60,256 bases of DNA from Candidatus Micrarchaeota archaeon. GTDB lineage: Archaea; Micrarchaeota; Micrarchaeia; Micrarchaeales; CABMGC01. Each line of letters opens with the position of its first letter. Within the stretch, counting starts at the first letter, position 1. Location of the stretch: contig JAJZKU010000004.1 of assembly GCA_021850705.1 (NCBI GenBank), forward strand, positions 1 through 60,256. Direction: 5' to 3'. Shown piece after piece: positions 5,742 through 42,590 of this stretch. The notes beneath the pieces are model-generated. The model searched no databases. It saw only the letters and a program-made list of their open reading frames with translations, and was not told the origin of the DNA. A program made the translations under genes and the position numbers.

Positions 5742-5748
5742 GACCTTA

Positions 5749-24634: not shown

Positions 24635-24738
24635 ATGATCATACTTTGCTGGTTTTGAGGATCTCTCTATCTGTACAAAAGATATTACCATATCATGTGG
24701 TGATCAAACTCTATTGCTGCAGCCATTTTACCCCATTC

Positions 24739-25398: not shown

Positions 25399-25512
25399 AA
25401 AAATCCCCAATTATTATGTTAAGCCATACAAATAACTTATACTTATTCTTTATTATAATCCTTTGCTTATAAGTAACTTATAATTAATATCAATGAGTCT
25501 TTCCAAGTCATA

Positions 25513-26016
25513 CTACTCGGAAAATTTGTCCAGATTACGAACAATTTCATCAACAATCTGAAGAGCATTTCTCCCGGCAGTATCTATATTTATCCCGTAA
25601 TCAAATTCTGATACCAGTTCAAAAACGTCTTTTGTAGCCTGTTCTCCCAGTCCATCATTTCTAGATTTATCCCTTTCTATGCATGCCTTCAGGTCTGCCT
25701 TTAATGTAAATACCATGTGGCTGAAATCCAACTTTGATATAATATCCTCTATCTGTTCCTTATGATAAAAATTACCATCTAGAATGAGATTGTTGCCACT
25801 TTCTAGCTTCTCCCTGAATTCAGGCAACATTATTTCATCTGCTTTCAGAAACTTCTGCAAGGGTATCCATTTATCTCCTGGCATATAATCCAATCCTAGC
25901 TTATCCATTATAATATCGAAATTAACTACATCAGCATTAATCTTTTCAGCTAGCAGTTTGCTTACTGTGCTCTTCCCTACTCCTGCAGGTCCTCTTATTA
26001 TCACATAGTAACTCAT
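25513..26016 (-). CDS. P-loop small-molecule kinase (AAA_33-like)
   Basis: IIRGPAGVGKST, LILDGNF, CIERDKSR. Confidence 0.8.
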   Translation of the reverse strand: MSYYVIIRGPAGVGKSTVSKLLAEKINADVVNFDIIMDKLGLDYMPGDKWIPLQKFLKADEIMLPEFREKLESGNNLILDGNFYHKEQIEDIISKLDFSHMVFTLKADLKACIERDKSRNDGLGEQATKDVFELVSEFDYGINIDTAGRNALQIVDEIVRNLDKFSE

Positions 26017-26219
26017 GCGAACCGCCCGAATCAGATCAAATATGACGTTCCTAATCCTTCTAAACTCTAATAATCAGAAGCGCTTATATCTTTCCAGTAA
26101 GACATATTTACATTACTAAAACTCCTTATTAATTCCTTATGCAGAGCTTCTCTCGCACGAATAACATGAACATTCCCAGAAATAGCAATTACTGAATTAT
26201 GCTTTTTATCAGTAAACAT

Positions 26220-26657
26220 TCATACTTTATGCCGTGCAGCTATATCTCTCCATTCAAGTATGTCCTTTTTATCATCCAGCATATTTTCTGGAAGTGCATA
26301 TATGTTAAACCATCTGTATTCATCTGACTCATCATTGAGCACTATTTTCGTATTAATATCAATAGAAGTTGCATAGAAATGCATCAGGTATTCGTTAGGT
26401 TCTGATTCTGGAACCTTTCGCACATATACTGGTACCAGATCCTCCTGCTTCAGGTCTACGCCTATCTCTTCTCTGGCTTCCCTTATGCATGCCTGAACAG
26501 GGGTCTCATCAGGTTCAACAGAACCTCCTATGTTACCCCATCCTCCTTTATCTTCCCATTCTTTGTTATGCCTGCGCTTAAGCATGAGTATCTTTAGGTA
26601 CTCGCTGTCAAATACGCAAACAAAAGCTCCTGACCACATATAATTACCAACATACAA
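26220..26657 (-). CDS. Nudix hydrolase
   Basis: WGNIGGSVEPDETPVQACIREAREEIG, LNDESDEYRWF. Confidence 0.85.
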   Translation of the reverse strand: MYVGNYMWSGAFVCVFDSEYLKILMLKRRHNKEWEDKGGWGNIGGSVEPDETPVQACIREAREEIGVDLKQEDLVPVYVRKVPESEPNEYLMHFYATSIDINTKIVLNDESDEYRWFNIYALPENMLDDKKDILEWRDIAARHKV

Positions 26658-26717
26658 ACCTTAGATAAGCCCTGTAATCAAATCCTTTGCCTATATTAAA
26701 TATAACCTTAATTCTTA

Positions 26718-27356
26718 TTACAAACCTTTGCCTATGAGCGACTTAGAATCCATATCCACGAGTCTTTCCCAATCTGTATTACCTCCTTCCTTTAATCTTT
26801 CCTTTATGATCAGGTAACCAAGCGCATAACCAGACCACAATGCAAACTCCTTATCATCTGGACTTATGAATAATCTATTGTAAAGGTCAACACTGTTATC
26901 ATCCAGCCTATCTGTTATCTTCTGCCAGACCTCTTTTGCCTGATCCATATTCAACGCTGTCGACCACGGTCTTACCTTGCCTGTTGCAGCTTCTTCAAAG
27001 CACTGTGCAAGGCCTTCAAATGCAATCCCTGCCCCTATGCCACTGCGTTCTCTTCCAGACATTCTCTGGAATCTTACAGCGTGGTTGTATTCATGGGCAA
27101 TTGTTTGGGCAACAAAATCTCTCCAAGAATGCGCTCCTGTATTTATACTTATGGATATTACAAAATCGTTTCTTGTGAATCCAAAGACACCATCCATCCT
27201 ATCTCTTATAAAAGTGTCCTCATTGGTTGACAGAATAACTGCAATATCATTTCTGCTAATAAGCAGCTTTTCTGACTTTGCCATGCCTTCCTTTACCAAG
27301 GAAACCGCATCCTCTAACTCCTTCTCATAAGTAACAAGTACCTTGAAATTACTCAT
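26718..27356 (-). CDS. Zn-dependent protease, DUF2268-like
   Basis: AHEYNH, EGLAQCFE, WSGYALGY; start probably ATG 27356. Confidence 0.8.
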   Translation of the reverse strand: MSNFKVLVTYEKELEDAVSLVKEGMAKSEKLLISRNDIAVILSTNEDTFIRDRMDGVFGFTRNDFVISISINTGAHSWRDFVAQTIAHEYNHAVRFQRMSGRERSGIGAGIAFEGLAQCFEEAATGKVRPWSTALNMDQAKEVWQKITDRLDDNSVDLYNRLFISPDDKEFALWSGYALGYLIIKERLKEGGNTDWERLVDMDSKSLIGKGL

Positions 27357-27369
27357 CTCTAGCTGTTCA

Positions 27370-27972
27370 AACCCTAATCTTCTTCCCTCATTGCCCATAA
27401 AACCGCGATTAACTATGTTTATTAATACCTAGAATCTGTTCAGGCATTATTTTTATATAAAAACTCACTTGCCTTTGTTACGGCCTCTTGTCCTCCCTGG
27501 AAATGCAGCAGTTCCTTGGCTCTTTCCAGATTAGCCCATTCATATGCCGTATGTTCATCAGAAAGGACAGGATCAGTATCGCATCTTGCCAGAAAGAGTA
27601 TAATCTTGCGGTGAACACCTTCTGGATTTATATACGTATTCTCATTGCGGAAACCTTCGACAGGCTTTAACTTCTCTATATCAATCTCCGTTTCCTCCTT
27701 AAGTTCGCGTATTGCAGTTGTGAGTTCATCTGTATCTTCCGGTTTGACATGCCCCTTCGGAAAGTCCCATACTCCATCAATAGCCTTTTTCATAACCAGA
27801 AAATTACCCTTACTGTTAACCAGAATAAATCCAATTGACGTGTCGTAGTTCTCCATTAATTCACTTATAATCATATTTTAATAACGAAGTTATGTAAATA
27901 CCATGTTTCTGGACTCATTTGGGCAATGTAGTGATAACCAGAGCATATCTAGATAACCCTAATCTTCTTCCC
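27370..27972. repeat. 18-bp direct repeat AACCCTAATCTTCTTCCC at 27370-27387 and 27955-27972
   Basis: Exact match read by eye; the two copies bracket the Nudix gene 27440-27874. Confidence 0.7.
27440..27874 (-). CDS. Nudix hydrolase, Ap4A hydrolase-like
   Basis: WDFPKGHV, TAIRELKEET, LSDEHTAYEW. Confidence 0.85.
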   Translation of the reverse strand: MIISELMENYDTSIGFILVNSKGNFLVMKKAIDGVWDFPKGHVKPEDTDELTTAIRELKEETEIDIEKLKPVEGFRNENTYINPEGVHRKIILFLARCDTDPVLSDEHTAYEWANLERAKELLHFQGGQEAVTKASEFLYKNNA

Positions 27973-28007
27973 ACACTATACTTATCTTATTAATATTAAT
28001 AAGCCAT

Positions 28008-28265
28008 TCATTTCCTATACCTGTAATAACTAACTGCAGTTCCGCAGCTTCCTGAAGAGACCTCAGATATGGACTTTGCAAGTTCCTTCTGCTCCTCCAA
28101 GGAGCCGATCCTTGCCCTTACTATGAAGCCATAGTCCCCTTCGGTAAGCAGTACCTCATCCACACTATCAAATCCTGCAAACCTCTTTGCTAGCTCGTCC
28201 GCGTTCGTATTCTCCTTTGGCCTCACAAAGAACAATCTGTGAAGCTTCGCTATTTTCTTTGCCAT
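28008..28265 (-). CDS. Small Lrp/AsnC ligand-binding (RAM)-like domain protein
   Basis: VDEVLLTEGDYGFIVR pattern; no HTH; GGTGG RBS. Confidence 0.6.
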   Translation of the reverse strand: MAKKIAKLHRLFFVRPKENTNADELAKRFAGFDSVDEVLLTEGDYGFIVRARIGSLEEQKELAKSISEVSSGSCGTAVSYYRYRK

Positions 28266-28322
28266 TTTAACCCACCAAGGTTAAGTGTAACTGCAGCTAA
28301 GCGTGATATATTGTAAAAAGAA

Positions 28323-28410
28323 GTAGATGAGATGGAGTTATGTAGGGTTGGGTTGGGAAAAAAGAATTCGACCATATAAATGGTTCATTCTTCGTATCCA
28401 TCTCATCCAC
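28323..28410 (-). promoter_or_regulatory. Long stem-loop in the leader of the 28008-28265 gene
   Basis: GTGGATGAGATGGA pairs with TCCATCTCATCTAC (one G-U); inner AAGAAT/ATTCTT and ACCAT/ATGGT stems. Confidence 0.55.
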
Positions 28411-28629
28411 CTGTCCATACATATGAATATCCTTTTATTTATTAATGAGCTCAATACGTGCCTGTATTGATAGATATTTCTAAATATAATCCTTATCTAT
28501 CCTATATTGGCTCTAACATCATAATGCTTGATATGTGCTTTACCCATATAATCCCCTGCTCCACTCACAAAACAATAAAAAAGTGCAACTTTAAATATCA
28601 GGCATTATACATATAATATTGGTGGAGTT

Positions 28630-30045
28630 GTGCCTAAAAGACTTCCAGATGACATAGACAGGGCTGTACGGACTATACGGAAGGAGTATGGCCATTACGT
28701 CCAGGCAAAATTCATGCATGGGAAGTACAGGCTCTTTGAGGCAACAAGTATCTACGATCCTGAAAAGAAGAAACCCAAGAAGGTCACACGATACCTGGGG
28801 TGGCTTACAGAGAGCGGACAGCTGATACCTGCCAGGCACAATGATTTGAAGACAAAGATCTTCAACAAACTTGAGGAGGATACTGAAAAGAAGATAAAGG
28901 AACTGGAAGAATCACTGAAGGAAGCGGAGAAGAAGAGTTACGAAGAAGGGATAAGGAAGAAGAATACAGAAAAACATGAACGCGACATTCTAAGGGCACT
29001 CTCAATGAATGCAAGGATAACCGTTCCAGAACTTGCGAAGATAACAGGACTCGGCAACACTGCAGTTAACTACCATCTGAGAAACCTAGAAAGACGATAC
29101 GACATAAAGTACCTATTGGAAATAGACATAGAAAAATTCGGATACATAAATTACATAGCCTTTGTAAAGTTCAAGGATAAAAGGCCGACATACGAGGAGA
29201 TGAAGAGTCAGCTTGAAGCAATCCCATACGTCCAGGTAGCAATGACAACAAAGGGAATTTATGATATGGTCATTTTCCTAGTAGTAGAAGCAAACAGTGA
29301 TGCAAGATCATCACTATACGATTTAATTAGCTTCGCATTCCCCTCTTATAATGTCGATTGGACAATGACTCCTGCATATTTCGGTGGTTTTGGGTTTATC
29401 CCATTAAGAGACCAATTCTTCGAGATTCTTAAAGAAAAGGTGTGGACAAGAACAAAGGAAAAACCAAGACCTGTACATGATGAAATAACAGAGATAGAAT
29501 ACAAAGTGCTAAGAGCAATGAATGATAATGCAGCAGCAGATTTTACATCTATAGATAAAGAGATAGGAGCAGATACTGGCAGATCAAATTATGCGTTCCA
29601 CCAGCTTATTAAAAGAGGGATAATAAAAAGAGCTACTATAAATATGCAAAATATTAACTCTAAATTTGATGTGATGTTCTTACTTAGCCATGAAAATTAT
29701 AATGAATGGGCTCCATATAGAGAAAAGTTACTTATAGAAATAATAGAAGAAAAAAGTCATCACGATACTTACTCATTTACTTGTGATACAATGTCTCCAA
29801 GAGGCGTATTGCTAATCACACACATCAAAAAAAATGAAAATCCAGAAGAAAAAGTTGAAAAACTATCAAATAAAATAAAAGGTATGTGTTTTAACACATT
29901 GATAATAACAAATCAAGTGCTTGGATTAACAAATAATAGATTATATGATAAAACTCAGTCGAGACAATACGAAGTACTAATATCTGGATATAACTATACT
30001 CCAGAAAAGATACATAGTATACTCGAACACGAAAATCGTGATTAA
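28630..30045 (+). CDS. Tandem Lrp/AsnC-type regulator with an extra transposase-like N-terminal domain
   Basis: ILRALSMNARITVPELAKITG HTH, TKGIYDM RAM domain, second HTH VLRAMNDNA...LIKRGIIK; N-terminus FEATSIYDPEKKKPKKVTRYLG. Confidence 0.75.
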   Translation: MPKRLPDDIDRAVRTIRKEYGHYVQAKFMHGKYRLFEATSIYDPEKKKPKKVTRYLGWLTESGQLIPARHNDLKTKIFNKLEEDTEKKIKELEESLKEAEKKSYEEGIRKKNTEKHERDILRALSMNARITVPELAKITGLGNTAVNYHLRNLERRYDIKYLLEIDIEKFGYINYIAFVKFKDKRPTYEEMKSQLEAIPYVQVAMTTKGIYDMVIFLVVEANSDARSSLYDLISFAFPSYNVDWTMTPAYFGGFGFIPLRDQFFEILKEKVWTRTKEKPRPVHDEITEIEYKVLRAMNDNAAADFTSIDKEIGADTGRSNYAFHQLIKRGIIKRATINMQNINSKFDVMFLLSHENYNEWAPYREKLLIEIIEEKSHHDTYSFTCDTMSPRGVLLITHIKKNENPEEKVEKLSNKIKGMCFNTLIITNQVLGLTNNRLYDKTQSRQYEVLISGYNYTPEKIHSILEHENRD

Positions 30046-30080
30046 CTACTACTTCCTCCTCCGCCAGGTCCTCCTAACAT
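30042..30080 (-). CDS. Putative 12-aa Gly/Ser micro-peptide MLGGPGGGGSSS
   Basis: AGGTGA RBS just before the ATG and a TTTAAA box about 30 nt upstream; GC-rich codons in AT-rich surroundings. Confidence 0.4.
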   Translation of the reverse strand: MLGGPGGGGSSS

Positions 30081-30281
30081 ATTTTCACCTAAATGAAAGT
30101 ATTTTCAAATCTTTAAAAACCATGCTGCTATCAAAATATATCCATGTATAACCACGTCAATCAACGATTGAGCAGGTTGCTAATTTATAAACCTGCCTTT
30201 AATCTGCCTAATTGTTAACGACGGACATACGATAACTATTTATATGTGGAAATGCACATCAAATAGTAAGGTATGTAGCTC

Positions 30282-31151
30282 TTGACCAGAGAGCTTCACA
30301 GGGTTGGTATAGTGGTAGAAAGAGTAGCAACAGGGATAAAAGGATTCGACCAGCTAGTAGAAGGGGGATTCCCAAAAAGGTCATCAATACTTATAACAGG
30401 TCCTCCTGGAAGTGGCAAATCTATATTCTCAATGCAGTATATATATAACGGAGCAATGAATGGGGAGAATGGAGTTTACGTTTATATGGACTCTGCCCTA
30501 GACATTTTAAAAACGCAGGCTAAGCAATTCGGAATGGACTTTGAAAAGCTGGAGCAGGAAGGAAAGGTAACATTTATACATGTGCCTTTGACCAAGAGGA
30601 AATTCGACCTTTTCTATAATATAGAAGATTCAGTTAAGAAAATAAGTGCACAGAGGCTAGTTTTCGATAGCCTGCCAACCTTTGTAATAAACATGGACCT
30701 GTTTACAGTACCTGCTGCATATTCTGGAGCTGCAGCATCAACGGTAACCACTACAAGAGATCTGATAGCTACAAACAGCAGTGCACTTGCAGCTTCTCCT
30801 AAACAAGATAGTGATAAAATTGTGTATCAGGGCGACCAGGAAAAAAGAATTGTAAGTATAACCATAGATCAGCTGAGAAAACTTGAAACCACTAACCTTA
30901 TAGCAACGTTTGGAAACGAAGAGCTCAACAAAGTCACTATGGATGGTATAAGTGAATATGCGTGTGATGGAGTTATAGCTATGAATATCCAACACATAGC
31001 AAAGAAAACAGTAAGAAGTATAACGATTAAAAAAATGCGCAATACTAAACAGGAGCTGGATGACTTTTTACTAAACATATCCGAAAAAGGCCTGAGCGTA
31101 GAGAAAGAAAGCGTATTTGAAGGTTCCAAAATATCCGGAATCAACGAATAG
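30282..31151 (+). CDS. KaiC/GvpD/RAD55-family single-domain ATPase
   Basis: RVATGIKGFDQLVEGGFP, GPPGSGKS, RLVFDS, EYACDGVI, IKKMRNT; true start may be GTG 30312. Confidence 0.88.
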   Translation: MTRELHRVGIVVERVATGIKGFDQLVEGGFPKRSSILITGPPGSGKSIFSMQYIYNGAMNGENGVYVYMDSALDILKTQAKQFGMDFEKLEQEGKVTFIHVPLTKRKFDLFYNIEDSVKKISAQRLVFDSLPTFVINMDLFTVPAAYSGAAASTVTTTRDLIATNSSALAASPKQDSDKIVYQGDQEKRIVSITIDQLRKLETTNLIATFGNEELNKVTMDGISEYACDGVIAMNIQHIAKKTVRSITIKKMRNTKQELDDFLLNISEKGLSVEKESVFEGSKISGINE

Positions 31152-31156
31152 ATGCT

Positions 31157-32755
31157 ATGATGGTAGAAAAAATAGATAATTTAATAGGAGGACAGCCGAT
31201 TAATCTTGGCAAGGCTTATTTTACAGTGGAAAGTCCATTTTACAAAGATCTTAAAGTATCGATTGCAGATTCAAGTCAACTTGACATATCTATTGCTTTA
31301 TCTAAGATAAAAAACGCATGGGAAGATTGCCAAAAATTAAGTTTTAATGAAAGAGCAGATATAGTAGAAAAAGCCGCTTCAAAACTGAAGTTTACAGAAG
31401 ATGAAATAAACTCTATAGTAAAAATGCTAGGCATGCCCAAAAAATATGTTTCAATGCAGATAAACCAGATAATAGCGATAATGCAGACATTTAGAGAAAC
31501 AGTGTCTAAAAGGTACGGTTTTATAGATGAAAAGATAGGAACAAATTTCATAGAAAATGACAACTTTCATAAAATAGAATTCAGAATTCCTAAAAAAGGT
31601 TTCATCTACGCTGTTACTCCTGGAAATGACCCAAGAGTAACCTCTGTTGTATTAACTATACTTGCCCTGCTTGGCATACCTGGAATAATTAAACCTAGCA
31701 AAAACGATTATATAATCCCTATAAAAGTTGCAAAAGCAATAGTCGATGCCGGATATCCGAAAAATGGTTTAACAATATTATTCTTAAATTCAGAAAACCC
31801 TAAGTCAAAGGAATATAATTTCAGGATATGCGATGCATCCATGGCGATATGGCCGTTCGGAGACGAAAATACTGTAGACAACCTTTTAAGGATAGAAAAG
31901 CATGATGTATTCGATATAGAAAAATTCCTAAGTGACAAAAAAATAAATAACCTGAAAAACAACTTTCCAGAATTTTTAGCTGAATTGGAGAAAAGCAAAA
32001 ATTACATCGATACATATATGCTTACACAGACTATAGATCATTTTGCATCAAAACTTGTCCTTAGGCATGCATCTGGTAGATGTGCAGGAGTACTGGACGA
32101 AGATTTTGATCTGAATCTTGCAGCTAAGATGGCAATAGAATCGTCTATGGCATATCCGATAGGCTGTAATTCTATGAAATCATTATTTGTTGTAGAATCA
32201 GTATTCGACAAATTTGTGAACATACTTAAACAAGAGGTTATCAAGCTTGACAAGAAGACTTCAGACCCACTAAATCCAGATACCGAAGTTGGTTATGTTG
32301 ATAAAGAAATAGTCAACTTCATAGAAAAAAGAGTAGAGGAACTTAAGTTGCTACAGCAGGTATCAATATTGCATGGGGGTAAAAAGATAAGTCCGGTCCA
32401 ACTTACTCCTCTTATCGTCTCAACAAATGATCTAAACTCTGAATTATTGATAAACGAGATATCTGGGTATATATTATGCTTAACTAAAGTTAAATCGTTC
32501 CAAGAAGGCATATCAGAGATAAACAGATTATCTAAGAATTCGCCAAAACTGGCCATAAGCTATTTCACTAATAGCACTACTAACATGAAACACTATGTTA
32601 ATGCGCATCATGTAAAGATAAACCACGTTACTACAGACCTAGACGGGATAGTTCATGAAGGCAACGATTATATAATGCAACTTACGAGACCATATATGGT
32701 GCATCTGAACAAAGAACATACTAAAAATCATCCGTATAGGAAGGTGGCGAACTAA
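31157..32755 (+). CDS. Aldehyde dehydrogenase-superfamily protein, LuxC-like acyl reductase
   Basis: TPGNDP, IIKPS, WPFGDENTV, catalytic GCNS, DPLNPDTEVG, NEISG; ALDH ELGG motif replaced by HASG. Confidence 0.7.
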   Translation: MMVEKIDNLIGGQPINLGKAYFTVESPFYKDLKVSIADSSQLDISIALSKIKNAWEDCQKLSFNERADIVEKAASKLKFTEDEINSIVKMLGMPKKYVSMQINQIIAIMQTFRETVSKRYGFIDEKIGTNFIENDNFHKIEFRIPKKGFIYAVTPGNDPRVTSVVLTILALLGIPGIIKPSKNDYIIPIKVAKAIVDAGYPKNGLTILFLNSENPKSKEYNFRICDASMAIWPFGDENTVDNLLRIEKHDVFDIEKFLSDKKINNLKNNFPEFLAELEKSKNYIDTYMLTQTIDHFASKLVLRHASGRCAGVLDEDFDLNLAAKMAIESSMAYPIGCNSMKSLFVVESVFDKFVNILKQEVIKLDKKTSDPLNPDTEVGYVDKEIVNFIEKRVEELKLLQQVSILHGGKKISPVQLTPLIVSTNDLNSELLINEISGYILCLTKVKSFQEGISEINRLSKNSPKLAISYFTNSTTNMKHYVNAHHVKINHVTTDLDGIVHEGNDYIMQLTRPYMVHLNKEHTKNHPYRKVAN

Positions 32756-33231
32756 TGCACAAAAAAGCAGAAGAATTAATGTTTGCAGATCTTCTCCGTT
32801 TCAGAGAAGACGGTAGAATAGACCTTTTTAACAACGCTGCTTTCTTACTTCCAAGTGAATTCATACTAAAAATGGAAGAGCATCTTTCTCCGGAAGAAAT
32901 TTACGTATTAGCTAAAAAAATACCCTTGCCTATTATAAAAATATTATCTGATAGGGAGATGAAGGAACTAGAAAGATTGGATTTCCTATTACAACTTGCA
33001 GAGGTTTTAGGAATGGGCAGCATCAGCGTTCCAAATTTCGATCAGAATAACGCGGCGCATCAAGTAATAATAACAAATACTAATCCAAATAAGGTATCAT
33101 GCCATCATACTAGGGGATATCTGGCCTCAATATTCTCAGATGCCTTAAAAAAGAACTTTGAATGCGAAGAAAACCAATGTGTCTCAAGAGGCGCAGACAG
33201 CTGCAAATTCACTATATCTGTTAAAGGCTAG
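32755..33231 (+). CDS. V4R (4-vinyl reductase) domain protein
   Basis: GRIDLFN, LGMG, CHHTRGYLASIFS, ECEENQCVSRGADSCKF. Confidence 0.85.
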   Translation: MHKKAEELMFADLLRFREDGRIDLFNNAAFLLPSEFILKMEEHLSPEEIYVLAKKIPLPIIKILSDREMKELERLDFLLQLAEVLGMGSISVPNFDQNNAAHQVIITNTNPNKVSCHHTRGYLASIFSDALKKNFECEENQCVSRGADSCKFTISVKG

Positions 33232-34409
33232 CCTATACAGCAACCTGCTGATATTATATCATTAGGATTATCTATGCGGCTGATATCTGATATAACCTTA
33301 CTTTTAAGACCGCATTCACATTCAGACTCATTCTTAATCGTTGTTGCTTCGTCTCCAGGCGCATATCTTATATACACCGTGCCCTCACGAGCAATTGTAG
33401 TATAAATTAACAGTCCCTTTTCTCCTTTTTTTGCAGGTACTATAACGCCATCCTCCTCTTTTACTACTTCTACATAATGGGGCCCGTTAAACACGTGTAA
33501 TGCGTTGAACTGGCATACCTTATTACTTTCTATGGAACTGATATTCCCTCCTTGAGGTATGGCCTCTGAGGAACCTAAGAAGCTAGCAATGGGTTTTCTG
33601 AAAGCTTTTGACCAGTTTACAACTTCATCTATTACATTATAACCTGCTAATGCAATCTTATCAATATTGTTTTCTATAACATCATGCCCTGCTTCTACCA
33701 AGGAAAGGAAACTTGTTCCTCCTCCTTTAGATACCTTATCTCCTTCTGTGATGGGCCCTTGTGAAGTTATTAATGAATTTATCTTATACTGTTTAATAGT
33801 CTCTATAACATCATCTGAAGAATCTGTAGAACGTCTAGGTATGTATGTTGCACCAATCTTCAATATCGCTTCTTTTAGTTCTTCACCGCCCTTATGCGTC
33901 GGATTATAAGTACACATTATTCTATCATTCTCGTTAAAACCTGCGTATGCAAGAACACGAGCAAGCCCTGCACTTTCTATCTCCCTATCAAGCGGAGTGA
34001 TGAACGTTGGAGTCGCAGTCCCTTTTGTTCCTCCTGATTTATATACTTGATAATTAGATTTAATGCCGCTTGGCAATAACATATAAGGATCTGTCAGTAT
34101 CTTATCCCTAAATCCGACACCACTTGACGTTGAATCTTTAACAAGAATTGGTACAGAACTAAAATCTTCAAACGAATCAATCTTCGGGATGTTTTTGTAT
34201 GCGTTTTTATAAACAGGTATCTTATTTATTGCGCGATCAAGGCTGAACCTTAAGAAAGGTAAAAGAGCCTCTTCTAATTCTCCCTTATTTAACAGTTCCC
34301 AGGAAGAGTTTTGCCATATACTCGTAGGTATCTCCAGTGGAGACAGATACTTTCCATTACGGACATCTTCTTGAAACTCTTTAAATTCTTCATCTATTTT
34401 TAATTGCAT
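33228..34409 (-). CDS. Adenylate-forming enzyme, PaaK/LuxE-like
   Basis: VPILVKD, KSGGTKG, LGSSE, HYVEVV, GLLIYTT, IRYAPGD, CECG; ends GCCIG shortly after the hinge Arg. Confidence 0.75.
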   Translation of the reverse strand: MQLKIDEEFKEFQEDVRNGKYLSPLEIPTSIWQNSSWELLNKGELEEALLPFLRFSLDRAINKIPVYKNAYKNIPKIDSFEDFSSVPILVKDSTSSGVGFRDKILTDPYMLLPSGIKSNYQVYKSGGTKGTATPTFITPLDREIESAGLARVLAYAGFNENDRIMCTYNPTHKGGEELKEAILKIGATYIPRRSTDSSDDVIETIKQYKINSLITSQGPITEGDKVSKGGGTSFLSLVEAGHDVIENNIDKIALAGYNVIDEVVNWSKAFRKPIASFLGSSEAIPQGGNISSIESNKVCQFNALHVFNGPHYVEVVKEEDGVIVPAKKGEKGLLIYTTIAREGTVYIRYAPGDEATTIKNESECECGLKSKVISDISRIDNPNDIISAGCCIG

Positions 34410-34432
34410 AAAATCCCTATAATTACTATATG

Positions 34433-35803
34433 CTATTTCTTGCTTGTAAGAAGTCTACTGTAAAATACAAATATGTTATTTGTTAGATGGTGACAGCTTG
34501 CCAAATCCCCTTCTTTAGAACCTATCTCTCCAGAAGTAGTAAACCCTACGATGTTGGCGCCTCGAAATCCTTGCTTAAGCTTCTTTAAGTCTTCTGGAAA
34601 TTGCTCCTTCATAACGTTTTTACGAGTAAGGCAGGAGGTTAAAAGTATTAAGCTAGGTTGATTAGTCTCTTCAGTATATTGTTGTATATTAGTAACTATC
34701 TCGTCAGTAGCGCTGAATAAATTTTTAGGATCTCCATCCATCAAGAATATAGGTGCCCCCTCTATAACTGGTGCAGGATATGCCAGACTCTCGTTATCGG
34801 GTCCTGTAGGAACACCTCCTCCTCTTACTATTATGTTACCTAATGTATCTACCATTCCTATGGGCCATCTTTGAGTAATTCCGAGTGTCATCGCACTGTC
34901 TACAAACTCCTTTTTACTCATCTTAAGTTTTTTAGAGTACCAGTCAACAGGCTTCTGTCCGGATATCTCATCAACTACATATCCGCCAAGCGATGTCTTA
35001 CTAACTACATCTAAAGATCCTGTTTTCTTGGCACCATGTGCCATGGAATATCCATAAAGCATGCTGGTAACAGTAAACATGATTATCAAACCATCTTTGT
35101 AGACTTTACCAGAATGGAGCGAATATATGTCATATTTATTCATTATGTTTTCTAAAGAGGTTTCAAAGCTTCCTCCCCATATTGGTACCTGCCTGCCAAC
35201 AGTATCAGATATGCCTAAAATAATCTTATCCTCTTCTCCCATCTTAGGCAATTTGAACCCGTTAACAAAAACATGGATATAATAAGGTGGTACCTTTACA
35301 ATGCCCCTAATATCTCCGCTCTTCAGTCTAAGTGCTTGCATATAAGGGTCAACGTAATTATCAATCGATAATTTTGTTAATGCCTCTTTAGACACCTTCT
35401 TGGCAACTCCGAAAGAATCTTCGGAAGCACCATCTGCAGAAGCAATACCAACATGTAAGAAATCAGACTGTATACTTGCTACAACAACTCCTTTGTCAAG
35501 GACCTTATTATCGTATATTACGCTTCCTCCTAAACCTCCAACAAACTCAGTATTCTTTAAGACCTCCTTTAAACCTTTAGTCAGTTCATATGGGTCGTAA
35601 TTTCCAGAGAAAAATACATAACTAACAGTGGGATCCTTCCCATTAAGTTTAGACAATGCCTGCTGTGCAGCCTCCTTTGCCGCCAGATATGCATTAGCAT
35701 TAACAGACATTCCACTTCCAACTAACATTGTTGTATTTTCAGAACTCTTTATATCTTGCAGTTTCCCCCATTTAGTTACCAACCCATCTTCCATATAATT
35801 CAC
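34433..35803 (-). CDS. FIST (N and C) sensory domain protein
   Basis: VGSGMS, AAKEAAQQAL, PIWGG, VDEISGQKP, SCLTR, GFTTSGEIG, HHLT. Confidence 0.85.
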   Translation of the reverse strand: MNYMEDGLVTKWGKLQDIKSSENTTMLVGSGMSVNANAYLAAKEAAQQALSKLNGKDPTVSYVFFSGNYDPYELTKGLKEVLKNTEFVGGLGGSVIYDNKVLDKGVVVASIQSDFLHVGIASADGASEDSFGVAKKVSKEALTKLSIDNYVDPYMQALRLKSGDIRGIVKVPPYYIHVFVNGFKLPKMGEEDKIILGISDTVGRQVPIWGGSFETSLENIMNKYDIYSLHSGKVYKDGLIIMFTVTSMLYGYSMAHGAKKTGSLDVVSKTSLGGYVVDEISGQKPVDWYSKKLKMSKKEFVDSAMTLGITQRWPIGMVDTLGNIIVRGGGVPTGPDNESLAYPAPVIEGAPIFLMDGDPKNLFSATDEIVTNIQQYTEETNQPSLILLTSCLTRKNVMKEQFPEDLKKLKQGFRGANIVGFTTSGEIGSKEGDLASCHHLTNNIFVFYSRLLTSKK

Positions 35804-36234
35804 CCTAACTTACTGAGCCCTTTTTTACCAGAAGGAACGATTGACCTTTCAACCTTCTTTATCTCAATCGATTCAACCAACATAGGTCGTAAACGGCTCG
35901 GTATTGTTTTGTTAAGCGTCTCTTCAAGTGAGCTCTTGAATTGTTCTGCATTCTCCTTTTCCTTAAAATGCCCTATTAACGTAATAGGAGTGCCTATAAG
36001 AAGTTCAAGCAAACCATCTTTCATAATTAGCCTATGGAAAAATCTTGTTTCTAAGAAATCAGCTCCAAGATAAACAGACTCATATTTTAATGAAGATTCA
36101 AGATCTAAAATGAATTGCTTTAAGTTTCCAATGGCTATCTCCTCCTGCCTTGTTAAGATATTCTCTCTTTCTAATTTAAATGGTAAAATCCCACTAAAAT
36201 CTACAAGAACTACATCGTATGACTCTTTAATCAT
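35800..36234 (-). CDS. Hypothetical protein
   Basis: 144-aa ORF overlapping the FIST gene start; first gene of the minus-strand operon. Confidence 0.65.
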   Translation of the reverse strand: MIKESYDVVLVDFSGILPFKLERENILTRQEEIAIGNLKQFILDLESSLKYESVYLGADFLETRFFHRLIMKDGLLELLIGTPITLIGHFKEKENAEQFKSSLEETLNKTIPSRLRPMLVESIEIKKVERSIVPSGKKGLSKLG

Positions 36235-36325: not shown

Positions 36326-36844
36326 TCACACTGATATTTTCTCCTTGTTTTTCTTGTACCAGTCAAAGAGAAGCAGGAAGGTAGGCACAAACCTTTCCCC
36401 GTTCCTTATCTTCATCTCTATCTCTTCAATCGTATAACACTCCTGTGATCCTGCATCTTCATGCAAACGCGGCTTCCTGTCAGACCTTGTAATATAAAGT
36501 CTGACAAACTCATTCTTGGTATCAGGTCCTAAAGGAAGATCATAACAGGGCTTCAGCTCAAGGCCTTCTATTCCAAGCTCTTCGAGCGCTTCCCTGCGTG
36601 CAGCCTCATCATAACTCTCACCCTTACTCACATGGCCTGCGGCAGACGAGTCATAAAAACCAGGATGCGTATCCACGCTCTGTCCCCTTCTCTCTATCCA
36701 TAACCTTCCATCTGAATCAAGCATGAATATATGCACAGCTCTATGGAGCTTGTCTGTTTTGTGAACCCCTTTCCTCGGAGTCTCCCCGATTACCCTGTTA
36801 TTCTCATCTACCACATCAACCATTTCAACCTGTTCGGCTTCCAT
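36326..36844 (-). CDS. Nudix hydrolase, IPP isomerase type 1 / YfcD-like
   Basis: VDVVDENN, LHRAVHIF, DSSAAGHVSKGESYDEAARREALEELGI. Confidence 0.8.
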   Translation of the reverse strand: MEAEQVEMVDVVDENNRVIGETPRKGVHKTDKLHRAVHIFMLDSDGRLWIERRGQSVDTHPGFYDSSAAGHVSKGESYDEAARREALEELGIEGLELKPCYDLPLGPDTKNEFVRLYITRSDRKPRLHEDAGSQECYTIEEIEMKIRNGERFVPTFLLLFDWYKKNKEKISV

Positions 36845-36906: not shown

Positions 36907-37695
36907 CTATCCTCCTCCGCTGCTGTAGTCCTTCAGCAGTGTGTAGAATATCTTCCTTGAAACGAAGATAACGACTAATGATAGCAACAGTGCTGCAGCT
37001 ACTGCAGTAGGGCCGATCATGCCGAAAAGTGCTTCTGCAGGATAGTAGTATGCTATTCCTATTGGCATTGCAAGGGTGAATATCAGCTGCCCAAGTACTC
37101 CATAAACGCTTAATGGGTATGTACCTGCATTGCTGAGCATGCTCTCCATATTATTTATGAATTGCCCGCTCTTGAACAAACGATAAGAGAGAATGGACAT
37201 CATCACGAAGAACATCAGGAACGCAGCAGTGCCTGTGATGAAGAGCAATGCAAAGTAAACTAACTGCATTGCGGTTATGCCGAGATGCATTGCCGAATAG
37301 ATAAACAAAGCAAGTCCAGACATGAAACCTGCGGAGTCCCAGACCATGCCGAAGCCGCCAGAGATTATCGTAAGGTAGCCGTAGGGCTTCGTGAACCACA
37401 TGTCCATGTTCCCTCTCCTAAGCCTCTGTGCCACATCCCACGGGGCTATCATATAATCTACGAACCCGAACATCATTGATGTAATGCTGGACAGTGCAAG
37501 CACCTGGAAGTAGGACCATCCTGGTATGCCGCTCGATACTGTGTAAATAACAGTTATCGCCACTATGCTGTTTAAGATCACGAGTAAATCAGCAAATAAC
37601 CATATGAAAGCCTGCCATCTGTATATAAGGAAGCTCTTCCATGCCATCTTCTGCACGTTGATCAAAAAACTTAGATTATCTATGAATCTGCTCAT
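36907..37695 (-). CDS. ABC-2 type transporter permease (DUF990-like)
   Basis: About 6 TM; GWSY, G.MD....KP, YPLSVY, YYPA, C-terminal YSSGGG. Confidence 0.85.
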   Translation of the reverse strand: MSRFIDNLSFLINVQKMAWKSFLIYRWQAFIWLFADLLVILNSIVAITVIYTVSSGIPGWSYFQVLALSSITSMMFGFVDYMIAPWDVAQRLRRGNMDMWFTKPYGYLTIISGGFGMVWDSAGFMSGLALFIYSAMHLGITAMQLVYFALLFITGTAAFLMFFVMMSILSYRLFKSGQFINNMESMLSNAGTYPLSVYGVLGQLIFTLAMPIGIAYYYPAEALFGMIGPTAVAAALLLSLVVIFVSRKIFYTLLKDYSSGGG

Positions 37696-38499
37696 CTAAC
37701 CACCTACGGATGTAATATTCTTCTTTACTCTTTTCCACCAGAAGAACGCAAAGATGCCTAGTACTATGGCCCAAACTGTACCTACCAGTAACCCATTGAC
37801 TATGGCAGCAGGCGTGGCAGTCCCAAGAAATATTGATACTGGGAGATAGCCCATGTCCTGAAATGGCAGTGCATATACTATGTTGGAAAGATACTGGGGA
37901 AACATGCTTAGCGGCACCGTTCCTCCTGCTACGATGTATACAAGTATGCCTATCATATACCTTAACCCATAAACACGGGTCACAAATAGGGCAAGCGTTC
38001 CTATAAGGAAGCTGATTATGCCAAATACTGCGAAACCTACTGCAAGGGTGAGCAGTGCCAATGCTATGCTATATACGGTTATTGGAATATGCGCCACGAG
38101 CACAGCTATCAGCAGCAGTGGCAGCGAGAAGGTGGCAACTCCCACCATCATATTGCTAACAGATGCAATAAACAGATGCATCACATAATTTACAGGCCTT
38201 ATGATTATAGCAGTTATTGTCCCTTCAAGCACATCATTCTGAATGTAATAGGCGATGTTTGATTCAGCTATAGCATAGAAAGCGACGAAAAGGAAGAAAT
38301 ATGCGTATATGCCTTGCAACGTGAATCCTCCAATCTGTTTTGCTCCTGAGCTTTCAAAGAGTACTGTCCATACAAATATCATAAGCAGCGCGTAACCTAT
38401 GCTGAAGACCATTTCCAGTAAGAAGTCTGTCTTGTAATAAAAGACATCCTTCAGGTCTATCTTAAGCATGCCTATATACGGCTCCAGGTATCTATTCAT
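37696..38499 (-). CDS. ABC-2 type transporter permease (DUF990-like)
   Basis: IGGFTL, EGTITAIIIRPV, GGTVPLSMFP, LPFQ, C-terminal SVGG. Confidence 0.85.
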   Translation of the reverse strand: MNRYLEPYIGMLKIDLKDVFYYKTDFLLEMVFSIGYALLMIFVWTVLFESSGAKQIGGFTLQGIYAYFFLFVAFYAIAESNIAYYIQNDVLEGTITAIIIRPVNYVMHLFIASVSNMMVGVATFSLPLLLIAVLVAHIPITVYSIALALLTLAVGFAVFGIISFLIGTLALFVTRVYGLRYMIGILVYIVAGGTVPLSMFPQYLSNIVYALPFQDMGYLPVSIFLGTATPAAIVNGLLVGTVWAIVLGIFAFFWWKRVKKNITSVGG

Positions 38500-38505
38500 C
38501 TTCTA

Positions 38506-39489
38506 TCACTGCTTATCCATCTTCTTGTACAGCTTTGAGAGTACGAAGTTCAGCCCAGGCTCATATACCTTGTAATCAATGACATTGTCGCCCGAGAGCA
38601 TGCCTATGAATCCTTTGCTCTTCAATATCTTCCTGTTAACCTCCAGCTTTACGAAGTTGTCCGAACTCTCCAATATCTTTCCATACTTCCTGAATTCAGC
38701 TCCTGATGAGCTCCTAAGCTCAAGGTCTATCATGCGCTTGTCTCCAAAGAGATGCTCAAGCTTACTCCTAGGCCCGTCAAAGACCAGCCTGCCCTTGTTT
38801 ATGAGAATTACCTTCTCGGCCATGGTTATGTCTTCAACCAGATGCGTTGTTATCACGAAGGTCGTATTGTACCTCTTCTGCATGCTCAGGATCATGGAAC
38901 GGAGCGCAGTCTTTGAAGGCAGATCCACGCCTATCGTGGGCTCGTCAAGGAAGACTATCTTGGGCATATGCAGCACAGAGGCTACGAAGTTGCACTTCAT
39001 CTGCTCTCCAAGAGAGAGCGTCCTTACCGGCCTCCTGTACACCTTCTTCAGGTCCAGCATCTCCAGCAGCTCCTCCAGACGCTTCCTGTACTCCTTCTCA
39101 GGTATCCTATATATCGAGCGTATGAAGTCAAAGGTGTCTATTGCAGGCAGGTTCCAGTAGAGCTGCCCATGCGCTCCCAATACCACTCCTATCTGCGAAG
39201 CTATCCTTATCCTGTTCTCCCACGGGTCCACTCCCATTATCCTGACGCTTCCGCTGTCTGGGTGCAGTATCCCTGTCATTGTCTTTATCAGCGTGGACTT
39301 CCCGCTTCCGTTCCTTCCCAGCAGTGCCACTATCTCTCCCTCATTCACAGAGAAGCTCAGGCCGTCAAGGGCCGTCTTGTTGTAGCTCTTGCGTATCAGC
39401 TTCGCCAAAAAGCCGCCGTTCTTCCTGTGTTCATGGGTTCTGAACCTCTTCTTCACATCCTTTACTTCTATTATCTTCTCCATAAGCAT
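38506..39489 (-). CDS. ABC transporter ATP-binding protein
   Basis: GRNGSGKST, LSLGEQM, FLDEPTIGVD, TTH. Confidence 0.92.
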   Translation of the reverse strand: MLMEKIIEVKDVKKRFRTHEHRKNGGFLAKLIRKSYNKTALDGLSFSVNEGEIVALLGRNGSGKSTLIKTMTGILHPDSGSVRIMGVDPWENRIRIASQIGVVLGAHGQLYWNLPAIDTFDFIRSIYRIPEKEYRKRLEELLEMLDLKKVYRRPVRTLSLGEQMKCNFVASVLHMPKIVFLDEPTIGVDLPSKTALRSMILSMQKRYNTTFVITTHLVEDITMAEKVILINKGRLVFDGPRSKLEHLFGDKRMIDLELRSSSGAEFRKYGKILESSDNFVKLEVNRKILKSKGFIGMLSGDNVIDYKVYEPGLNFVLSKLYKKMDKQ

Positions 39490-39730: not shown

Positions 39731-40219
39731 AATTAATTTGTGGAGAAATGGTACGGCAAAATACCTCTGGAGAGGTGCACAAAAAACCAGCAGATAATAA
39801 ACAAAAATACACCTTCACCTTCAAATCTGGAGACAGTGTAAGAATAAAATGAGATTCATTCTGGAGAGAGAGGGAGAAGACAGCCGAGATATGGGACATT
39901 TTATGCTCGAACTGCAGGTCAAAGGTACTTCTGTACCAGAAAGACGGGAGGGGCAAGCTACACCGGTGTTATCTCAACAGGATACTCGACCCTCCATCAT
40001 ATGCAGAGTTGCAGGATAATGTAAAAATAACAAAGGAAAACATGCCTGTTTTAATATGCAGAAAATGCCAACAAACCATCGGTTATCCAATGATGCACAG
40101 AGAAGGAAGGCTTGCCTACTTCCTGCTTAATGGTAAATGGACAAAGCAGAAAAGTGATATAATTGGAAGATAATTGAAGGAAATCTAAATAACGCATTCT
40201 GGCCTCATTGTTTAAGGAG
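39731..40219. repeat. 489-bp direct repeat, copy 1
   Basis: Matches 44487-44975 (offset 4756); 6 substitutions seen by eye. Confidence 0.93.
39748..40173 (+). pseudogene. Nonsense-disrupted copy of the Zn-ribbon gene at 44504-44929
   Basis: Codon 35 CGG (Arg) is TGA at 39850-39852. Confidence 0.88.
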
Positions 40220-40373
40220 AGGCAAAGAAGAGATTATGATACGAGAAATGAGTGCCTAAACACAACACAATGTTACTAGAATTAAGTGCATATGCGCATC
40301 GCACTTATATTATTAAAAAGATCTTTAGAAACAATCTTATATGAAAAATGATTAAGAATGAAGATGTATTGAT

Positions 40374-41573
40374 ATGAAAAAAATGCCTCTTGAGTATAAA
40401 TTTTTTATATTTTACAATACACTCTCAGTTCTGGACATGTATTTTGCCCACTGGAACAGAGTTCCTAGTCTAAACGTTGAAAAACTGCGAAAAGAGTATA
40501 CTAAAGCAGTAAAAAATTCTAAGAACAGATACGAGTTTTTTCTTGTTATGTCCAGCATGATGGCAAGGCTAAGAAACAGGCATACCTGGTACACTGACAG
40601 AAAAATATGGCAGGATTACGGTATGGGGGTGGGATTCAATGCCATATATCACGATAAACTTAGAAAGTGGATAATCACATCAAGCGAAAACCGTAAGCTC
40701 CCTATAGGCAGTGTGATAACAAAAGTAAATGGCATCTCTACTAATAAATTTTTTAACAGCAAGAAAAAATATATCCCTGCTTCAAACGAACGTGCTGCCA
40801 GAAACAACTTATTCTCTTTTGGCCCATATTTACCAAAATCTATGGATATAGAACTAAACAATAAGACCAAGGTTCATATAAACAGAACCAAATTCACCAA
40901 CACTCCCAAAGAACATACTTCCTGCAAGGTATTCAAAAATAAGATCGGCTATATTAAAATACCGAGTTTTACCGGACATAAATTCGAAAAAGCAGCCTTG
41001 AATTGCTTGAATAAAATGAATGGACTTCGTACCATCATAATAGATCTGAGAGATAATGATGGTGGAAGTACACCTTGGAATCTGCTAAAAAAACTTATAA
41101 ATAAGAAATGGGAAAGCCCAGTGTATTTTGAAGTGGTAACTCCAACTGCGCTTGAGAGGCAGCATTCAAATATCAACAAGTATAGCCAAAATGGTTACTA
41201 TATTGATAAAAATAGGATATACAAGAAAAATAATTATGTTTATACTTCATGGAAAGATGCATTCAAGGGAAAACTCATAATATTAACAAACGAATCAACC
41301 TTATCTGCTGCCGAGGACTTTTTGATACCGTTAAAATATTATAAAAGAGCAATAATAATTGGCAGTAGAACTAATGGCAGCGATGGGGATGTGTTTTTTC
41401 ACGATCTTGACAAAGATATCTTTATAGGCGTAGGGTGCGCTTCTGTCAGATTCCCAGATGGTAAAAGAATTGAAGGATTTGGTATATCTCCAGACATAGA
41501 AGTATATCCAAAGCTAACAGATATTAGAAGTAAAACAGACGTTGTCTTAAAAAGAGCCTTGGAAATGGCATAA
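40374..41573 (+). CDS. S41-family peptidase (tail-specific protease-like)
   Basis: IGYIKIPSF, IIDLRDNDGG, TLSAAEDF, IIGSRTNG, EGFGISPDI; no obvious signal peptide. Confidence 0.88.
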   Translation: MKKMPLEYKFFIFYNTLSVLDMYFAHWNRVPSLNVEKLRKEYTKAVKNSKNRYEFFLVMSSMMARLRNRHTWYTDRKIWQDYGMGVGFNAIYHDKLRKWIITSSENRKLPIGSVITKVNGISTNKFFNSKKKYIPASNERAARNNLFSFGPYLPKSMDIELNNKTKVHINRTKFTNTPKEHTSCKVFKNKIGYIKIPSFTGHKFEKAALNCLNKMNGLRTIIIDLRDNDGGSTPWNLLKKLINKKWESPVYFEVVTPTALERQHSNINKYSQNGYYIDKNRIYKKNNYVYTSWKDAFKGKLIILTNESTLSAAEDFLIPLKYYKRAIIIGSRTNGSDGDVFFHDLDKDIFIGVGCASVRFPDGKRIEGFGISPDIEVYPKLTDIRSKTDVVLKRALEMA

Positions 41574-41637
41574 TGCCATTTAATTCATAATGCCGATTAA
41601 GGATGGACACGCATAACAAGCAGTATTGTTGGTAAAA

Positions 41638-42252: not shown

Positions 42253-42354
42253 ACAGCCTATCAATTTTGTATTCAGTCTCCTCATCTGAAGATTGCAACA
42301 TAATTAACATTAATGATTAAGACAATTACTATGATAACATTAAAGATAGTCTAT

Positions 42355-42567
42355 CTACTTCCTTCTTACTGATGCCAGCTCCTTAATTTCTCCACTCTTA
42401 AATGCTCTGGCTATCTGATTAAATTCAGACACAGTCATATTTGCTTTATTTCCTGCTCTATCAATCAGACTTACAGTTTGCTTCTGTTCGTCTAAAACAA
42501 ACTTAGGACAGTTGTCCCCAACTTTAGATCCTTCCTTTCCATCTACGTCGTATATCATTTTTTCCAT
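42355..42567 (-). CDS. Small protein, DUF397-like / DUF6879 partner
   Basis: SKVGDNCP motif, C-terminal EFNQIARAFKSGEI; AGGTGG RBS. Confidence 0.6.
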   Translation of the reverse strand: MEKMIYDVDGKEGSKVGDNCPKFVLDEQKQTVSLIDRAGNKANMTVSEFNQIARAFKSGEIKELASVRRK

Positions 42568-42590
42568 ATTTCCACCTAAATAAGTATTAC

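Follow-up and report, generated by a model that had tools for sequence, protein, structure and literature searches.

The stretch of DNA analysed here, called the window below, comprises 60,256 nucleotides of contig JAJZKU010000004.1 (assembly GCA_021850705.1, Candidatus Micrarchaeota archaeon) and shows a cluster of six genes between positions 30282 and 36234. Two of them encode enzymes, a 393-aa adenylating enzyme, hereafter ANL, and a protein with the aldehyde dehydrogenase (ALDH) fold, and the other four encode companion proteins. The features of the cluster, and of the gene located 5' of it, are the following:

30282-31151, plus strand: single-domain KaiC-like P-loop ATPase, 289 aa, first gene of the plus-strand operon.
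31157-32755, plus strand: ALDH-fold enzyme, 532 aa, with a match to Pfam Aldedh; proposed thioester reductase.
32755-33231, plus strand: stand-alone V4R protein, 158 aa, with a match to Pfam V4R; presumed small-ligand or redox sensor.
33228-34409, minus strand: PaaK-like adenylate-forming enzyme (ANL), 393 aa, assigned by NCBIfam and fold; proposed acyl-protein synthetase.
34433-35803, minus strand: stand-alone FIST_N + FIST_C protein, 456 aa, encoded directly upstream of the ANL gene; presumed ligand sensor or regulator.
35800-36234, minus strand: conserved alpha/beta protein, 144 aa, with no assigned family, first gene of the minus-strand operon.
28630-30045, plus strand: protein with two winged helix-turn-helix (HTH) regions, 471 aa, located 5' of the KaiC gene; may regulate transcription of the cluster.

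A first-pass annotation of this DNA had described six open reading frames (ORFs) in two tightly packed, convergent and AT-rich operons, and all six are present at these coordinates. The plus-strand genes are separated by a 5-nt gap and a 1-nt overlap and the minus-strand genes by a 23-nt gap and a 4-nt overlap, and the two operons meet, as had been noted, in stop codons that overlap at 33228-33231 (TAG at 33229-33231 on the plus strand and cta, equal to TAG, at 33228-33230 for the minus strand). The GC content is 0.36-0.38 over 30-36 kb, lower than in most of 1-24 kb and in 36-40 kb, where it is 0.42-0.48. The labels given to the KaiC-like, ALDH-fold, V4R and FIST proteins hold, with Pfam matches above the cut-offs, and the adenylate-forming enzyme proves to be PaaK-like by fold and by NCBIfam matches under the cut-offs, with no match in Pfam.

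ANL shows NCBIfam matches to PaaK_haloarch (9.7e-16), DVU_1553 AMP-ligase (8.5e-15) and F390 synthetase (2.6e-10), with bit scores far under the curated cut-offs (57.4 against 700, 39.6 against 458.7 and 36 against 646, respectively). No Pfam family was found for it, including in a search at E <= 10, nor was an AMP-binding_C domain. It shares with PaaK and F390 synthetase the motifs SGGTxG (P-loop-like), GSSEA, YxPGD and CxCG. Since the matches stop at about position 320, spanning only positions 5 to 320 or so of PaaK and F390 profiles of 427-445 positions, the C-terminal subdomain, with which canonical adenylate-forming enzymes carry out the thioester half-reaction, is absent from ANL, and it is missing in every member of the family. 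A search of the Protein Data Bank (PDB) with the single sequence returned PaaK-type ligases only, and the ANL family profile (A1; A2 is that of the ALDH) run against all PDB chains at E <= 10 returned only PaaK-like ligases, EhpF and one lactate oxidase. The AlphaFold2 model (pLDDT 86.6, pTM 0.88) agrees with this, its top Foldseek matches being of the PaaK family (4r1l with E 3.8e-18 and TM 0.70, and PaaK1, 2y27), and only the last 20 or so residues are of low confidence (block pLDDT 58 and 65). This end of the protein reads R378-x10-G389-C390-C-I-G. Arg378 is invariant in the tail, Gly389-Cys390 is invariant in 33 of 33 sequences of the family alignment, and Cys at position -4 is present in all 48 complete orthologous ORFs of the fetched loci; the ANL reading frame is also open in locus L019. 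About 100 homologues, all of approximately 390-425 aa, were found in 5.8 billion clustered proteins, and the named sources are Diapherotrites, Woesearchaeota, Aenigmarchaeota, Norongarragalinales and one Parachlamydiales bacterium.

The ALDH-fold partner matches Pfam Aldedh (PF00171) at 2.1e-29 (102.9 bits, cut-off 23), and at E <= 10 the only Pfam families that it matches are PF00171 and DUF1487. Its catalytic Cys337 and oxyanion Asn157 align with those of canonical ALDHs, and Glu434 is located at the cofactor site. In two PDB alignments, His304, within the motif R-H-A-S-G, is located opposite the general-base Glu of the ELGG motif. Among 15 orthologues, Cys337 is conserved in 15 and both Asn157 and Glu434 in 14, and position 304 is occupied by His in 13, Phe in one, Tyr in one and Glu in none. 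An enzyme without this general-base Glu does not qualify as a hydrolytic (acid-forming) ALDH. It also has an insertion of about 50 aa in common with the four most similar archaeal orthologues of A2 (L002, L003, L005; Micrarchaeota).

The neighbourhood of the ANL gene was compared in 55 loci, 18 from species genomes and 37 from metagenomes (56 with the window), in which families were counted by tblastn; the counts include probable duplicates, since a few loci are probably from one organism (identical gene lengths in L008/L027, L016/L048 and L017/L050/L051). The ALDH gene is located downstream of the ANL gene, in the same strand and directly or nearly so, in 51 of the 55 loci, and in the other four (L004, L044, L052 and L055) the contig ends within 1.4 kb. 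The pair spans DPANN archaea, Chloroflexi, Ignavibacteriales, Nitrospirae and Parachlamydiales. FIST is present in 30 loci, always beside the ANL gene or one gene away, the 144-aa protein in 22, V4R in 19 and the KaiC-like ATPase in 16. All six families are found together in 13 loci, all of them of DPANN-type archaea. In 19 loci the contig extends for 4 kb or more to either side; of these, 11 contain all six families and six contain the enzyme pair only, five of which are bacterial (Chloroflexi, Ignavibacteriales and Parachlamydiales) and the sixth is a metagenome contig (L036). Thus the co-occurrence in other genomes on which the first-pass annotation depended is found, and because the same gene set recurs, the six-gene arrangement is not a matter of chance. 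The sequence comparison supports that ANL and ALDH form a functional pair.

In the closest relatives, the genes for the 144-aa protein, FIST, ANL, a membrane protein, ALDH and V4R follow one another on one strand, and the KaiC gene is on the opposite one. The window is the sole locus of 56 in which ANL and ALDH are not co-directional; compared with L002-L006, L021 and L022, its ALDH-V4R block is inverted and the membrane protein gene is missing. The meaning that had been given to the two-operon layout, with one enzyme and one sensor in each operon, is therefore not sustained, since this layout is seen in 1 of 56 loci. The membrane protein is polytopic, of about 320 aa, and is encoded between ANL and ALDH in Micrarchaeota-type loci (L003:11188-12144; L002, L004, L005, L006 and L022). 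It shows 7-9 hydrophobic segments by hydropathy and no meaningful Pfam match at E <= 10, and its gene was not found in the host genome, which is 79% complete. An assignment of this gene as an aminotransferase was rejected; the protein could be a transporter for the substrate or the product. In L004, the membrane protein gene is followed not by the ALDH gene but by the start of a second ANL copy (12381-12563, 70% identical over 61 residues), and there the contig ends.

Gene content, residue conservation, fold and neighbourhoods lead us to a reading, to which we give a probability of roughly one half, in which the core of the cluster is a two-protein, CoA-independent carboxylate-to-aldehyde reductase, similar to LuxCE by analogy and independently evolved, which acts on a polar or amino-acid-derived acid and which in archaea is under FIST, V4R and KaiC control; from these same data we infer chemistry, substrate, direction and regulation. 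The PaaK-derived ANL would adenylate a carboxylic acid and, to judge from its architecture, which has no C-terminal subdomain, would load the acyl group on itself, at the invariant Cys in its flexible C-terminal tail. From the tail the acyl group would pass to the ALDH-fold partner, at its catalytic Cys, and this partner would reduce the thioester with NAD(P)H and release the aldehyde. Because the general-base Glu is missing, this partner could not readily hydrolyse the thioester and would reduce it instead. The prediction of the ALDH and ANL complex places the pair above its controls but as a weak pass: the median score is 0.50 (0.58, 0.50 and 0.50) and the best of three controls gives 0.00. 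At least 90% of contacts are common to the runs, with partner pLDDT of at least 81. Of 80 solved complexes, 58 reach the mark applied, as do 2 of 110 mismatched pairs, yet scores of 0.60 or less are accounted for by only seven of the 80 together with both mismatches. As the LuxC-LuxE complex has been solved, a memory effect may contribute to the prediction, though there is no detectable sequence likeness.

The same two proteins might instead be an ordinary CoA-dependent pair, in which the short ligase makes an acyl-CoA, the partner is a CoA-acylating ALDH or acyl-CoA reductase, and the tail Cys is structural or metal-binding. The nearest relatives of ANL in both sequence and fold are indeed CoA ligases (PaaK, BT_0428 and HCL), ALDHs that lack the general-base Glu include CoA-acylating enzymes, and the further conserved cysteines of ANL (C299, C364 and C366) suggest a metal site that the tail Cys could join. 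LuxC itself accepts acyl-CoA in vitro, according to a preprint (10.1101/2025.08.11.669332). Nevertheless, ligases of the PaaK type rely on the C-terminal subdomain both to take up the thioester-forming conformation and to contact CoA (PMC9157457), and this is precisely the part that ANL family members lack; an invariant Gly-Cys, placed in 48 of 48 ORFs at 4-6 residues from a C-terminus of low confidence, looks like a swinging carrier arm. We therefore hold this explanation to be unlikely.

The genes that accompany the pair in other lineages are mostly metabolic. Class I/II aminotransferase genes are beside it in 13 loci, archaeal and bacterial, and in L039 the ANL, ALDH and aminotransferase ORFs overlap as one operon. 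A class IV aminotransferase is present in four loci, and in L028-L030 its gene is located between ANL and ALDH. Eight loci show, between FIST and ANL, an SDR (L040 and L041) or a protein of 526 aa whose N-terminus is SDR-like. In nine bacterial-type loci an M14 carboxypeptidase gene precedes ANL, and genes encoding a PRK-like kinase and an SHMT-GcvT fusion are nearby. Because aminotransferase and SDR genes adjoin the pair in these lineages, the acid is probably polar or amino-acid-derived and not a fatty acid. The neighbours suggest a locally regulated metabolic pathway centred on an acid related to amino acids, a pattern that looks unlike that expected for a dedicated signal synthase. In such a route, an aminotransferase or SDR encoded within or beside the pair would take the aldehyde onward, so that it could be aminated or reduced, or the acid itself could be made by transamination.

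The same neighbours also fit the reverse direction, in which the ALDH would oxidise an aldehyde to an acyl-thioester, pass it to the tail Cys, and let ANL run backwards to yield ATP (acyl-S-Cys + AMP + pyrophosphate giving acid + ATP), that is, substrate-level phosphorylation from amino-acid-derived aldehydes. Class I/II and IV aminotransferases would suit a catabolic sequence from amino acid to 2-oxoacid, aldehyde and acid; Asn157, Glu434 and other cofactor-site residues of the ALDH are canonical and closer to those of oxidative ALDHs than LuxC is; and an additional step that yields ATP would count in a host whose genome is very small (647 kb in 24 contigs, 79% complete). On the other hand, no 2-oxoacid decarboxylase is seen among the neighbours in the related loci, and AMP-forming ligases rarely run in reverse and need high pyrophosphate to do so. 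Reversal thus seems to us quite unlikely.

The companions of the enzyme pair are putative sensors and switches and one protein of unassigned family. The KaiC-like ATPase matches Pfam PF06745 at 4.1e-48 (164.2 bits, cut-off 26.6), with the Walker A motif GPPGSGKS, and NCBIfam KaiC_arch_4 at 7.9e-30, under the cut-off of that family; against equivalogs it reaches 118.7 bits of 408 and 71.1 of 546. It has a single KaiC domain and is therefore not a circadian KaiC. A low-complexity insertion of about 45 residues, rich in Ala, Ser and Thr (approximately 143-190), splits its Pfam match in two. The V4R protein, whose C-terminal half is Cys-rich, matches Pfam PF02830 at 1.1e-10 (41.9 bits, cut-off 31) and, under the cut-off, the C-terminal part of NCBIfam MsvR at 1.7e-6. 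The FIST protein matches PF08495 at 5.5e-19 (69.2 bits, cut-off 23.2) and FIST_C PF10442 at 1.6e-14 (54.6 bits, cut-off 28.5), and with 36.7 bits against 450 it is not a member of the NosP nitric-oxide sensor family (NF041558). In the Altiarchaeales locus L007 the FIST orthologue (4825-6348) has an N-terminal winged HTH (HTH_24, 2.8e-6), and this fusion would be a one-component regulator, which speaks for FIST regulating the operon in response to a ligand. Tblastn places a small gene of approximately 95 aa 5' of FIST in 11 loci, and comparison does not identify it as the HTH that is fused in L007. L030 (12375-13937) and L034 (6739-8277) show, after V4R, a second and longer FIST paralogue of 512-520 aa with an unassigned N-terminal extension of about 130 aa. 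A FIST-V4R fusion, apparent when single-linkage clustering merged both families, was discarded since direct comparison shows no similarity between them.

The 144-aa protein shows no Pfam, NCBIfam or PADLOC family and no Atlas family or lead, and it has 16 invariant residues across ten orthologues. Its AlphaFold2 model (pLDDT 81) gives a weak AdoMetDC-like match in Foldseek (2iii, E 2.7e-4, TM 0.48) and middling best Z scores in VIA-align (8.8 for Mediator Med18/20 and 8.4 for AdoMetDC). The 471-aa protein matches Pfam HTH_24 at 2.9e-11 and, weakly, TrmB; its homologues adjoin the KaiC gene in L003 and L005 and are located a few kb 5' of the 144-aa gene in L002. The sensor, KaiC and 144-aa genes are conserved archaeal companions that probably regulate the enzyme pair, and all four proteins (FIST, V4R, KaiC-like ATPase and 144-aa protein) would make up an archaea-specific control layer on it.

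These companions are also what the first-pass annotation built upon when it proposed a quorum-like or host-sensing circuit. That explanation takes the product (aldehyde or acyl) as a diffusible signal that is quorum-like or directed to the host, with FIST and V4R as receptors and KaiC as a switch. Three or four putative sensor or switch proteins stay with the enzymes in the 13 loci that contain all the families, and the polytopic membrane protein encoded between the enzymes in the nearest relatives could export the product. Covalent binding of aldehydes by a human FIST domain takes place at a Cys and gives a hemithioacetal (PMC13316043), and the FIST proteins of these loci show an invariant Cys391 in the orthologue alignment; should the two residues be equivalent, this precedent would be a lead for product sensing. 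Against a signal, bacterial loci hold the enzymes with no sensor at all (six of the 19 long loci are pair-only), the HTH-FIST fusion fits plain regulation of an operon by its substrate or product, and the window has no membrane protein gene and no visible output machinery or second-cell logic. As the idea has no support beyond the presence of sensor genes, it is not favoured, and we regard it as very unlikely.

The tail of ANL is part of a wider picture. The family profile run against 1.84 billion representative clusters gives 38 matches at E <= 1e-30, 192 at 1e-10 and 1905 at 1e-3. Gly-Cys is present within the last 12 residues in 56 of the 150 best representatives; among those with a length of 330-430 aa the count is 41 of 61. 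A broad and unnamed set of adenylating enzymes of 350-420 aa ends in R-x(8-12)-G-C-x(2-5) (P0125, P0135, P0136, P0142-P0145, P0164 and others), and two of them, P0144 and P0164, show N-terminal fusions to an O-methyltransferase. A second group, of 450-490 aa, ends in GSCAxDALxL. The tail-Cys design without a C-terminal domain is thus far wider than the ANL family, and current profiles leave it unnamed. The methyltransferase fusions are a hallmark of natural-product enzymes, and ClxA, NatL2, AjiA1 and EhpF, the last without the C-terminal domain, are among the structural and profile matches of ANL, all of which would suit a short ligase that forms an amide or ester in small-molecule biosynthesis (like ClxA, NatL2 and EhpF), with the ALDH acting on some other intermediate. 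Nevertheless, ClxA, NatL2 and AjiA1 keep the C-terminal subdomain (EhpF is the exception), no other biosynthetic genes recur in the loci, and the strict order of ANL followed by ALDH, together with the complex prediction, weak pass as it is, argues for a direct hand-over. We consider such a ligase highly improbable.

Several points weigh against the two-protein reductase. The first-pass annotation had called the enzymes LuxC-like and LuxE-like and had set the Lux profiles against Aldedh and PaaK: the enzymes turn out to be Aldedh and PaaK-like, and neither LuxE PF04443 nor LuxC PF05893 matches either enzyme at E <= 10, so that membership of the Lux families falls, while the adjacent pair, the missing subdomain, the tail Cys and the lost general base stand. 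Because there is no such profile match, the likeness is one of architecture only. Profile A1 finds no LuxE chain in the PDB at E <= 10, LuxC is not among the best 60 of the 188 matches of profile A2 (with a 1e-5 cut-off, which would hide weaker ones), and the ALDH is more canonical than LuxC, with the oxyanion Asn and the second Glu kept. The His that stands in for the general base may in principle retain the ability to activate water. In the window the pair is split over two operons, with no membrane protein gene between them, and among ANL-related proteins of 689-2000 aa no ANL-ALDH or FIST-ANL fusion was found, although this search is weak evidence. Also, the complex prediction is only a weak pass, and the aminotransferases may make the acid instead of consuming the aldehyde, because they belong to class I/II and IV and not to class III, which is usual for aldehyde amination.

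The ANL gene was not found in 40 close relatives of the host (six share its genus, 18 its family and 16 its order). Across the phylum, six of 401 sampled genomes carry it, of which G000 is one, and none of 82 other genomes of the family does. Since so few genomes and clusters carry the family, the cluster is a rare and patchily distributed accessory module. Low GC content, which fits the absence from these relatives, suggests that it is acquired DNA. The window, elsewhere at 0.42-0.48, shows two stretches of lower GC content (0.33-0.39), at 24000-36000, which contains the cluster, and at 40000-48000. NUDIX hydrolase genes flank the cluster on both sides (27440-27874 and 36326-36844, both in the minus strand). 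Two other minus-strand genes near it encode a DUF2268 Zn-protease-like protein of 226 aa (26718-27398) and a stand-alone Lrp/AsnC ligand-binding domain of 85 aa (28008-28265; weak match, 1.4e-4), and both recur near the cluster in L004. An ABC-2-type transporter, with two PF06182 permeases and an ABC ATPase, is located at 36907-39489, two genes from the 144-aa gene and in the same strand; no such transporter is a conserved neighbour in the other loci. A known anti-phage defence system was considered and rejected: PADLOC gives only generic matches, a weak one for the KaiC P-loop (mad8, 3.4e-6) and HTH ones for the 471-aa protein, and none for the ALDH, V4R, ANL, FIST or 144-aa proteins. Near-identical DNA is found in mine-drainage and mine-tailings metagenomes (13 runs with at least half of the sampled words, seven of them possibly from the source sample), and no RNA run is among the sequencing runs listed as carrying it.

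If the mechanism holds, CoA-independent reduction of acids to aldehydes would not be peculiar to bioluminescence and would have arisen at least twice, and the pair would be a compact carboxylate reductase, dependent on ATP and NAD(P)H, of interest for biocatalysis. It would also give a concrete enzymatic partner to the FIST, V4R and KaiC-like proteins, whose ligands and outputs lack assignment in DPANN archaea, in genomes of about 0.8 Mb where each retained accessory cluster likely matters. A bolder version, which we think unlikely, is that DPANN archaea and several bacterial phyla hold a second and independent LuxCE-type reductase, made of a PaaK-derived synthetase with a swinging Cys and an ALDH of canonical lineage turned reductase, within a larger tail-Cys class, and that in archaea the FIST Cys senses the aldehyde covalently, in a feedback switch with V4R, KaiC and the 144-aa protein. 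Were the FIST-aldehyde switch true, it would provide the first assigned ligand class and output for the archaeal FIST/KaiC module.

Among known systems, the PaaK family (PaaK1 2Y27 and BT_0428 4R1L) and F390 synthetase are the closest relatives of ANL in sequence and fold; they differ from it in that the whole C-terminal subdomain is replaced in ANL by the Cys tail, and in the scores (57 bits against 700). EhpF, of phenazine antibiotic synthesis (3HGU, 3HGV and 3L2K), is also adenylate-forming, with chains of 346-369 aa against about 430 in PaaK, and presumably has no C-terminal subdomain. Its match to ANL is weak (E 0.013 with the profile; TM 0.54-0.58), and we know of no ALDH partner or tail Cys for it. 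Makarova, Galperin and Koonin (mBio, 2017) reportedly proposed archaeal KaiC-like ATPase neighbourhoods as signalling hubs, and the cluster resembles such hubs in that the gene of a single-domain KaiC-like ATPase accompanies those of small proteins with sensor domains. The literature searched gave no article that joins at least three of FIST, phenylacetate-CoA ligase, aldehyde dehydrogenase, V4R and DPANN, and a search for LuxE-like or LuxC-like homologues gave nothing on the ANL family. In carboxylic acid reductases (CARs) one polypeptide contains A-PCP-R, and the reductase is of the SDR type. In the synthesis of the tambjamine BE-18591, TabE, a thioester reductase of ALDH fold, is followed by the transaminase TabA (preprint 10.1101/2025.08.11.669332). 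These two, like CAR with a transaminase, share with the route proposed for the cluster the order from activated acyl thioester to aldehyde and amine, but TabE uses acyl-ACP and no ATP, and the aminotransferases in the present loci are of class I/II or IV and not of class III.

The system most similar in design is LuxE with LuxC. According to the cryo-EM study of the LuxC-LuxE complex (PMC9157457), LuxE shows less than 18% identity to acyl-CoA synthetases and no C-terminal subdomain, and contains a motif of about 20 aa, TRxxKGCxLS; the Cys of this motif becomes acylated and has to swing over to the Cys of LuxC. The failure of LuxC to hydrolyse is put down there to missing ALDH Glu and Asn residues (two Glu and one Asn). 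ANL is likewise related to PaaK, without the C-terminal subdomain and with a tail of about 20 residues containing Gly-Cys, of which the acylation is suggested by architecture, and its partner has the ALDH fold with the catalytic Cys kept and the hydrolytic general base lost, the two genes being neighbours as in LuxE and LuxC. The differences are that the tail of ANL, R-x9-11-GC-x2-4, is located at the very end of the protein and differs from TRxxKGCxLS; that the ALDH retains the oxyanion Asn and the second Glu that LuxC has lost, and so shares only part of the loss of Glu and Asn seen in LuxC; and that no luxD, luxAB or luxG genes are present, the neighbours being FIST, V4R, KaiC, aminotransferases and SDRs. 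The resemblance to LuxCE would most simply be explained by convergence from PaaK-like and classical ALDH ancestors.

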